A DNA stretch of 64,000 bases from Uloborus diversus (taxonomy: Eukaryota). How positions within the stretch are numbered: position 1 is the first letter of the stretch; each line of letters opens with the position of its first letter. The stretch lies in assembly GCF_026930045.1 (NCBI RefSeq), contig NC_072731.1, positions 137,946,156 through 138,010,155 on the forward strand, read 5' to 3'. Both the position numbers and the translations under genes were made by a program. Below the pieces are notes generated by a model that saw nothing but the letters and a program-made list of their open reading frames with translations, searched no databases and had not been told where the DNA came from. Of this stretch, positions 19,154-20,495 are shown one piece after another.

Positions 19154-20495
19154 ATTACGAGGGCTATCCAGAAAGTAGATTACGTTTTCGTCTGTGTCCG
19201 CTAGGGGCGGGGCTAGCGCGGCCATCTTGGGGTCAAAGCGTTGCGCAGCTCAGTCTGCATCTAGCCGTGCTAGTGAGAGGTTCGTGCTGTGTTCGTTCAG
19301 ATACTGTGACGGTTTGAAATGTCTGCGTTAATTGAAAATCCCGCGAGCTGCGAGGTGCGCGCAGTAATAAGGTTTCTGACTGCAAAAAACTGTAAACCGA
19401 TAGAAATCTATCGGCAGCTTTGTGAAGTGTATGGGGACAACATTATCACTGAAGGTGGAGTGCGTCAGTGGGTCATAAGATTTAAAAATGGCCGAACCAA
19501 TGTTCACGACGAAGATCGAAGTGGGAGACCCAGCATAGTGAACGCCGAACTTCTCAAAAAAGTCGATGCTAAAGTCCGGGAAAATCGAAATTTCACAATA
19601 ACGGAACTTTCTTTAAGTTTTCTACAAATTTCGCGAAGTTTGGTGCACGAAATCATCAGCGAAAAGCTTGGTTACCACAAGTTTTGTGCAAGATGGATTC
19701 CAAAAATCTTGACAGAGGACCACAAAAATCAGCGAATGGCTGCAGCGTTGAACTTTTTGGATGCTTACCATAAGGATGGTGACTTTTTACTCGATCGCAT
19801 CGTTACTGGTGACGAAACATGGGTGAAACACGTGAACTGTGAAACGAAATTGCAATCAATGCAGTGGGGGCACACAAGTTCTCCCCAAAAACCCAAGAAA
19901 TGCATGCAAACAATGTCGGCAAGGAAGATCATGGCGACTGTTTTTTGGGACAGAAAAGGTGTGATTTTGGTGGACTTCCTGGAAAGAGGCACTACAATAA
20001 ACTCTCAAAGGTATTGCCAAACTCTCCAAAAACTCAGAAGAGCAATTCAAAACAAGCGCAGAGGAATGTTGAGCTCTAAGATCTTGTTGTTTCACGACAA
20101 CGCCCGGCCCCACACGGCAAATGTCACTCGTAAAGTTCTTGAATCTTTTAAGTGGGAGTTGTTTCCTCATCCACCGTACAGTCCCGACCTGGCACCGAGC
20201 GACTTCCACCTATTCCCAGCAATGAAGAAGTGGCTGGCTATGCAGCGTTTTGATGACGACGCACAGCTGCAAGAAGAGGTAACGGAGTGGTTGAAGGCGC
20301 AGGCGGCCGAATTTTTCGACGAAGGAATTTCCAAGCTCGTACATCGCTACGATAAATGCCTTAATTTGTATGGTGACTATGTCGAAAAGTAGTATTTGAG
20401 TGTGGCTTTCATCTGTATATAATAAAAAAAATTTCCTATACTTTGTTTATTTTTTATTCCAAAACGTAATCTACTTTCTGGATAGCCCTCGTATA
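19154..20495 (+). mobile_element. mariner-family DNA transposon, full length, apparently intact
   Basis: The 33-bp terminal inverted repeats are identical: TACGAGGGCTATCCAGAAAGTAGATTACGTTTT at 19156-19188 and its reverse complement at 20461-20493. The flanks are TA-rich. The element encloses a single 357-aa ORF. Confidence 0.9.
19319..20392 (+). CDS. mariner transposase (DD34D type), uninterrupted 357 aa
   Basis: The ORF contains the N-terminal helix-turn-helix region, the WVKHVNCETK/DETW motif (first D), LFHDNARPH (second D) and YSPDLAPSDFHLF (third D). Confidence 0.85.
   Translation: MSALIENPASCEVRAVIRFLTAKNCKPIEIYRQLCEVYGDNIITEGGVRQWVIRFKNGRTNVHDEDRSGRPSIVNAELLKKVDAKVRENRNFTITELSLSFLQISRSLVHEIISEKLGYHKFCARWIPKILTEDHKNQRMAAALNFLDAYHKDGDFLLDRIVTGDETWVKHVNCETKLQSMQWGHTSSPQKPKKCMQTMSARKIMATVFWDRKGVILVDFLERGTTINSQRYCQTLQKLRRAIQNKRRGMLSSKILLFHDNARPHTANVTRKVLESFKWELFPHPPYSPDLAPSDFHLFPAMKKWLAMQRFDDDAQLQEEVTEWLKAQAAEFFDEGISKLVHRYDKCLNLYGDYVEK

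Follow-up and report, generated by a model that had tools for sequence, protein, structure and literature searches.

The major vault protein (MVP) gene of the spider Uloborus diversus contains a mariner transposon with an unbroken transposase open reading frame (ORF) in one of its introns, which raises the question of whether such a copy is still a working mobile element or is intact only through its youth. The transposon is located in a stretch of 64,000 nucleotides (nt), contig NC_072731.1 of the NCBI RefSeq assembly GCF_026930045.1, positions 137,946,156 to 138,010,155 of the forward strand. This whole stretch is designated as the window, and positions are counted from its first letter. The element is very likely a recently inserted, full-length autonomous DD34D mariner of the Tc1/mariner superfamily, placed antisense in the tenth coding intron of MVP. 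An earlier note on this DNA, made from the sequence alone, had recognized an intact and possibly still mobile mariner and had considered that such a copy stands out.

The boundaries of the element were determined first from its ends and then by comparison with related copies. A perfect inverted repeat of 33 nt, 100% complementary, is found at 19156-19188 and 20461-20493, and its 27-nt core occurs exactly 2 times in the window and 0 times in 100 dinucleotide-preserving shuffles. All 13 related copies obtained from other data sets terminate with TA followed by CGAGGG at one end and CCCTCG followed by TA at the other, and the sequences beyond the TA are unrelated among the copies. Because these copies share TA-bounded ends with unrelated flanks, the TA at the outer end of either 33-nt arm represents the target-site duplication. 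The terminal inverted repeat (TIR) proper is therefore 31 nt long, and the element occupies 19158-20491 on the plus strand (1334 bp). The perfect 33-bp repeat described in the earlier note is real as a repeat, with the correction that it consists of a 31-nt TIR and the TA of the duplicated target; the extent proposed there, 19154-20495, was 4 nt too long at each end. The left target-site duplication (19156-19157) can be read directly and is TA in all 13 related copies. It is followed by the left TIR, CGAGGGCTATCCAGAAAGTAGATTACGTTTT (19158-19188, plus strand), which is 100% complementary to the right TIR of 31 nt (20461-20491, minus strand). The right target-site duplication (20492-20493) was recognized by direct reading and by comparison with the related copies. 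Published mariner TIRs of a similar type likewise have CGAGG directly after TA (PMC5490172, PMC4678618, PMC3014272).

One position of the left TIR is variable among the copies. At position 8 (19165 in the window), T is seen in the window copy and in two related copies, L007 and L008, and the two TIRs are then fully complementary. In most other copies the base is A, which leaves one TIR mismatch, and in the copy from Stegodyphus mimosarum it is C. TIR asymmetry affects the activity of Mos1, and by analogy the T at this position could matter for the activity of the element.

The TIRs enclose a single gene. The 5′ untranslated region (UTR) was delimited at 19189-19318 (plus strand) from the alignment of 14 copies, and its size is given as 161 nt. 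The transposase ORF follows at 19319-20392 (plus strand); it starts with ATG, encodes 357 amino acids (aa) and ends with a stop codon. The ORF listing, the Pfam matches and the alignment with the Mos1 transposase structure 3HOS all identify it, and it is uninterrupted, as the earlier note had claimed. An AATAAA polyadenylation-type signal in the 3′ UTR (20421-20426, plus strand) was read directly and is conserved in the related copies. A G+C-rich block in the 5′ UTR, GGGGCGGGGC...GCGGCCATCTTGG at about 19205-19233, is invariant across all 13 related copies in the same alignment of 14; it looks like a GC box combined with a YY1-type site and is a possible candidate for an internal promoter.

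The protein shows the domain composition of a mariner transposase. Pfam matches were obtained for Transposase_1 (E-value 8.5e-23; 80.5 bits, with a cut-off of 24), HTH_48 (6.2e-9; 36.3 bits, with a cut-off of 24.1) and DDE_3 (3.9e-8). The HTH_48 match corresponds to the first helix-turn-helix of the DNA-binding region, residues 13-58 (19355-19492, plus strand), so the N-terminal DNA-binding region that the earlier note had proposed is present. The alignment with Mos1 transposase 3HOS by HMMER is full-length (residues 12-356, E-value 7.7e-55), and homology of this extent to a solved structure establishes the fold. The three motifs of the catalytic triad, also reported in that note, were located at residues 165 (DETW), 259 (HDNARPH) and 287 (YSPDLAPSDF). 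Their catalytic residues Asp165 (19811-19813), Asp260 (20096-20098) and Asp295 (20201-20203), all on the plus strand, are aligned with D156, D249 and D284 of Mos1, respectively. The spacing of 34 residues between D260 and D295 gives the DD34D signature. At residue 126 the linker motif reads WIPKIL, in which W, P and L are retained in comparison with WVPHEL; this variant is common to the close relatives retrieved. Between the two signature motifs WVPHEL and YSPDLAPSDY, WVPHEL is the less conserved one (PMC5490172).

The assignment to mariner thus rests on the TA duplication, the length of about 1.3 kb with short TIRs and a single ORF, the DD34D signature, and the transposase and helix-turn-helix homology. 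With TA duplications, perfect TIRs, a helix-turn-helix region, the DD34D triad, a stop codon and AATAAA, the element is a structurally complete mariner.

The position of the insertion was determined from the coding exons of the host gene. The concatenated minus-strand exons showed the best match to "major vault protein-like isoform X2 [Uloborus diversus]" (98%), and in a tblastn search with the U. diversus MVP the exon cores were 100% identical to the annotated protein, which identifies the window as chromosomal DNA of this spider. The gene has 14 coding exons on the minus strand, from 53.0 kb to 10.6 kb, with no gaps in the protein coordinates. The mariner is situated between coding exon 10 (21802-21942, minus strand; 100% identity, residues 564-610), which is upstream of the host intron in the MVP orientation, and coding exon 11 (about 16512-16724, minus strand; upper boundary approximate), which is downstream of it. 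The orientation of the mariner is opposite to that of MVP. The antisense location in intron 10 given by the earlier note is thus borne out by tblastn; the number is based on coding exons only, and it would change by one if the gene had a non-coding exon at its 5′ end. Two G+C-richer patches, 20900-21350 and 18050-18500, were considered as MVP exons, which would alter the intron number; they were excluded by translation, the next exon being 16512-16724. The reconstructed empty site before insertion reads ...ACAAATTATTATAT-TA-TATAGACAAAG..., and the TA duplication at this site is the trace of one past insertion event. An effect of this antisense intronic insertion on MVP is unlikely.

The transposition cycle has been established for Mos1 and Himar1. 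By analogy, the 357-aa transposase would bind the 31-bp terminal repeats through two N-terminal helix-turn-helix motifs, and a transposase dimer would pair both ends in a paired-end complex. The metal-binding triad D165/D260/D295 would then excise the element, and re-insertion at a TA dinucleotide would duplicate the TA. Judged from the sequence, all the prerequisites for this cycle are retained, and the copy is structurally competent.

The age of the insertion was estimated from changes private to the window copy, called against the 13 related DNA copies. There are about 7 such events in 1334 bp (~0.5%). Two lie in the UTRs: G to A at 19236 in the 5′ UTR, and a 4-nt block at 20428-20431 in the 3′ UTR. 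In the ORF there are G to A at 19556 (E80K), C to T at 19623 (P102L), C to T at 19762 (synonymous, D148), C to T at 19785 (S156F) and A to T at 20090 (I258F). The 4-nt block, immediately 3′ of AATAAA, is AAAA in the window copy and TTTT or TTTG in all relatives, and looks like one small rearrangement rather than four substitutions. With a private divergence of only ~0.5%, an unbroken ORF is the expected state, and intactness mainly reports youth. On this count of changes, the copy is intact mainly because it is young, and its intactness is no proof of activity.

The same changes were used to evaluate selection on the terminal branch. The coding part contains 4 non-synonymous changes and 1 synonymous change, and the site counts of 849 and 222 give a neutral expectation of about 3.8 to 1. 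As the ratio of changes matches the ratio of sites, the terminal branch looks neutral, and the window copy shows the signature of neutral drift since its insertion.

Hidden damage was then searched for by aligning the window protein with 125 full-length homologues, among which 144 columns have a consensus of at least 90%. The window copy differs from the consensus at 2 of these 144 columns, N91 and L102. N91, where the consensus is R, also occurs in the closest relatives (P0128, P0125 and the protein from Stegodyphus) and is therefore a lineage trait. Leu102 (codon CTA, 19622-19624, plus strand) is the only private change on a conserved position: the codon is CCA (Pro) in 13 of 13 related copies, and Pro is found in 91% of the 125 homologues. 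The residue is located between both helices of the second helix-turn-helix. The earlier note had warned of a hidden inactivating substitution in a catalytic residue; none was found, and no catalytic or near-invariant residue is altered in comparison with the 125 homologues and Mos1.

These observations bear on an alternative with an evenly balanced chance of being right, namely that the copy looks intact and is nevertheless dead. Its transposase would have been disabled by a private substitution, for which P102L is the best candidate, or the copy would have been silenced by the host, and the ORF would survive for want of time. The neutral ratio on the terminal branch and the conservation of Pro102 in homologues and close copies speak for it, as does the fact that mariner copies mostly lose their activity soon after they have inserted. 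On the other side, the catalytic and near-invariant residues are unchanged and both TIRs are perfect. The active Mos1 has Leu at the position aligned to residue 102 in the HMMER alignment, and so do three of the homologues. The other private residues, K80, F156 and F258, fall on positions variable among the relatives, some of which have F just before the HDNA motif.

Whether the family as a whole is young and mobile was examined through its relatives. At an E-value of 1e-20 or below, 4105 proteins are similar to the window transposase, and most of the best 120 of these are 355-357 aa long. The closest protein cluster at 90% contains 33 members, nearly all of 357 aa. At the nucleotide level, related copies that are 97.0-99.0% identical across the whole element, TIRs included, were found in at least 7 read sets and three ENA assemblies. 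The nearest lineage is represented by two SRA runs (L008 and L009, 99.0% and 98.7% identity to the window copy). A scaffold of Stegodyphus mimosarum (L010) carries a copy with 97.8% identity, interrupted only by an assembly gap. Six copies from one SRA series (L001-L006) show 97.4-97.5% identity to the window copy and are 99.8-100% identical among themselves, and three copies from ENA assemblies (L011-L013) show 97.0-97.2% identity at three different insertion sites, one of the records being labelled marine metagenome. The Stegodyphus copy and the other copies in L001-L013 share with the window copy this level of identity across UTRs, ORF and TIRs, the 357-aa ORF, and the ends with TA followed by CGAGGG; the window copy differs from them by its 4 private amino-acid changes.

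In the L001-L006 series, the protein P0122 is encoded on 9 contigs, and the copies have at least 4 different flanks. This is good evidence for very recent transposition in that host. Based on these data, the mariner family looks recently active.

Two of these sources deserve a description of their own. The Stegodyphus copy (KK119054.1, from 4798 onward) is ended by a run of N and has no real deletion. The protein KFM74526.1, a 247-aa "gene" annotated as "SETMAR, partial", is an artefact that annotation produced from a mariner of probably full length. L011 corresponds to ENA ERZ976227, a Tara Oceans "marine metagenome". L011-L013 are inserted at three TA sites with AT-rich flanks in assemblies labelled as metagenomes, and their carrier could be a marine animal, or they could derive from arthropod DNA in the sample.

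The two spiders belong to different families, Stegodyphus to the eresids and Uloborus to the uloborids. Between the MVP protein of U. diversus and those retrieved from other spiders, the identity reaches only 78-81%. Vertical inheritance is impossible with a nucleotide identity of about 98%, UTRs included, despite such divergence of the MVP protein. Comparison of these sequences indicates that horizontal transfer has almost certainly distributed the mariner family very recently among spiders and other animals, and the Stegodyphus copy is the strongest evidence for it. Transfer of this kind is typical of mariners. The ratio of non-synonymous to synonymous substitution rates (dN/dS) is 0.23-0.55 between lineages and 0.78 against the nearest lineage. 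The usual picture for mariners is selection during moves between hosts and drift of the copies inside a genome, and the dN/dS values estimated here fit this picture. Annotated proteins of two snakes, Pseudonaja and Laticauda, represent more distant relatives, with 63-73% identity. Scans for the exact TIR gave no matches in IMG/VR viral contigs, JGI metagenome contigs and GTDB prokaryotic genomes, and these collections thus give no indication of a viral vector or of contamination by bacteria.

The occurrence of near-identical copies in unrelated data sets, one of them the record labelled marine metagenome, could also be understood if the element were an assembly artefact or a contaminant joined into the spider scaffold. 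The sharp difference in GC content, 45% in the element and 31% in the remainder of the intron, would be compatible with this. Such a contrast is, however, expected of a recent horizontal arrival, and the related copies elsewhere are likewise inserted in AT-rich flanks (26-35% GC). The artefact was rejected since the junctions are exact TA duplications, located at a TA in an AT-rich intron, and the flanks constitute continuous MVP intron; its probability is considered minimal.

Many of the homologues are labelled by annotation pipelines as "histone-lysine N-methyltransferase SETMAR(-like)", and the catalytic domain of SETMAR (Hsmar1, of the cecropia subfamily) matches the window protein with an E-value of 4e-44. 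That the element is a SETMAR-like domesticated transposase gene instead of a transposon is nevertheless extremely improbable. In SETMAR, the third catalytic Asp is replaced by Asn; all three catalytic Asp residues are retained in the window protein. The element has both TIRs and the TA duplications, its ORF is fused to no SET domain or host exon, and it lies antisense inside an intron. Near-identical elements occupy many unrelated sites in other genomes, and the SETMAR names of the relatives are transferred labels. On account of the TIRs, the TA duplications, the stand-alone ORF and the many unrelated sites of the related copies, domestication was rejected.

Several points tell against the reading as a recently inserted, competent autonomous mariner. 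P102L, placed in the second helix-turn-helix, could weaken the binding of the ends. No protein identical to the window transposase is present in a collection of about 15 billion public proteins, which also favors a dead copy. Sister protein variants are found on 2-9 contigs each, and nothing points to an amplification of the window variant. How widely horizontal transfer has occurred is judged mainly from the Stegodyphus copy and from published work on relatives in reptiles. The window itself contains one copy of the element. P102L, a terminal branch that looks neutral and the lack of the exact protein among the ~15 billion sequences lowered the estimate of activity; it was raised by the perfect TIRs and by conserved positions that are otherwise unchanged. 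As a result, that the window copy encodes a working transposase is rated at slightly less than an even chance, and it is unlikely that this copy still moves in living populations.

The subfamily of the element was evaluated with three references, Himar1, Mos1 and SETMAR/Hsmar1. Himar1 was the best of the three (37% identity, 236 bits) and Mos1 gave 34% identity and 190 bits; these scores serve as a lead only. For the catalytic domain, the scores of Mos1 (158 bits) and Hsmar1 (154 bits) are about equal. Himar1, a mariner of the irritans subfamily from Haematobia irritans, and the window element have in common the length of about 1.3 kb, the TA duplication, DD34D, and the motif YSPDLAPSDF with F. 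The C-terminus is ...GDYVEK in the window transposase and ...GNYVE in Himar1. They differ in that the identity is only about 37%, the linker of the window protein is WIPKIL and not WVPHEL or WVPREL, and the window TIR is 31 nt. Mos1, from Drosophila mauritiana, has the same architecture of two helix-turn-helix motifs and an RNase-H-like domain, with the triad aligned, and differs by the identity of about 34% and by probably belonging to a different subfamily. The TIRs of Mos1 are 28 bp and imperfect, while those of the window element are 31 bp and perfect.

The aphid "Macrosiphinimar" elements of the irritans type, Apismar1.1 and Mpmar1.1, are 1334 bp long, with an ORF of 354-355 aa and the TIR CGAGGCGTGTCCAGAAAGTAAGTGTACT (PMC5490172). 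Their TIR shares 17 of the first 20 nt and 19 of 28 nt with the window TIR, and the element length is equal at 1334 bp. Because the score of Himar1 exceeds that of Mos1, the TIR resembles that of Macrosiphinimar, and YSPDLAPSDF and the ...YVE(K) end are as in Himar1, the element is tentatively classified as probably irritans-like.

Similarity at the ends extends to two families of miniature inverted-repeat transposable elements (MITEs) from the lizard Anolis carolinensis. TcMar-N1_AC (901 copies) and TcMar-N10_AC (287 copies) are orphan MITEs for which their authors found no autonomous partner (PMC3014272). In a comparison covering only the 20 terminal nt, TcMar-N1_AC is identical to the window element at 20 of 20 and TcMar-N10_AC at 19 of 20, and both also have the TA duplication. 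The MITEs differ from it in being non-coding, with lengths of 489 and 664 bp, TIRs of 203 and 311 bp, and 4-5% divergence from their consensus (PMC3014272). The match of the ends suggests that relatives of the mariner family invaded squamates. A further proposal, that this copy or the family consensus is a naturally active mariner now spreading horizontally among animals, and maybe also the autonomous partner of TcMar-N1_AC and TcMar-N10_AC, appears doubtful on the present sequence comparisons.

The U. diversus genome consists of 66.6% repeats, and Tc1/mariner-type sequences account for 428,233 pieces, or 7.0% of the assembly (PMC9912274). In surveys of arthropod genomes, "potentially active" mariners with complete ORFs are reported routinely (PMC5490172, PMC4678618). 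Given a host rich in Tc1/mariner, surveys that routinely list intact copies, thousands of full-length homologues and a divergence of only ~0.5%, the view of the earlier note that an intact copy stands out found no support in that form. The window mariner is an ordinary object in transposon-rich arthropod genomes.

Several other repeats were recognized in the window. A second mariner, of another lineage and decayed, lies at 59838-61184 on the minus strand; its Pfam matches are Transposase_1 and HTH_48, and its identity to the intact mariner is 29%. Its TIR arms (59838-59878 and 61144-61184), which begin with TA followed by CGAGGTGTGGCTAG, are only 85% complementary, and its ORF (60129-61007) has a frameshift near the second catalytic Asp. 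It provides an internal contrast to the intact mariner. Just outside it is a (TA)n microsatellite of about 85 bp (59706-59791). Broken pieces of a piggyBac-type transposase (42425-43877, minus strand; Pfam DDE_Tnp_1_7, E-value about 1e-16) are found within the long MVP intron that separates the exons at 45.4 kb and 38.9 kb. A reverse-transcriptase fragment (51632-52088, minus strand), situated in the first intron of MVP, has a weak match to Pfam RVT_1 (E-value 2e-4, below the cut-off) and is probably a remnant of a non-LTR (long terminal repeat) retrotransposon. An unclassified repeat is present in at least 3 copies with 80-87% identity (4701-5368, 34101-34760 and 34754-35258), each with a similar short ORF (…GGEIIVNFNANSSGVIICQTLG…); a Pfam scan of one copy only (34664-34933) gave no match.

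These findings leave the understanding of mariners unchanged. The near-identity among the copies of U. diversus, Stegodyphus mimosarum and unrelated samples would represent one more recent and wide horizontal transfer of a mariner, and the match with the ends of the Anolis MITEs indicates a possible link from arthropods to reptiles. Only Mos1, Famar1 and Mboumar-9 are cited as naturally active mariners (PMC5490172). If the copy or its family consensus were naturally active, it would join these very few elements and would provide chelicerates with a native transposon tool. A working transposase could be used as a vector for transgenesis or mutagenesis in spiders, for which genetic tools are scarce.

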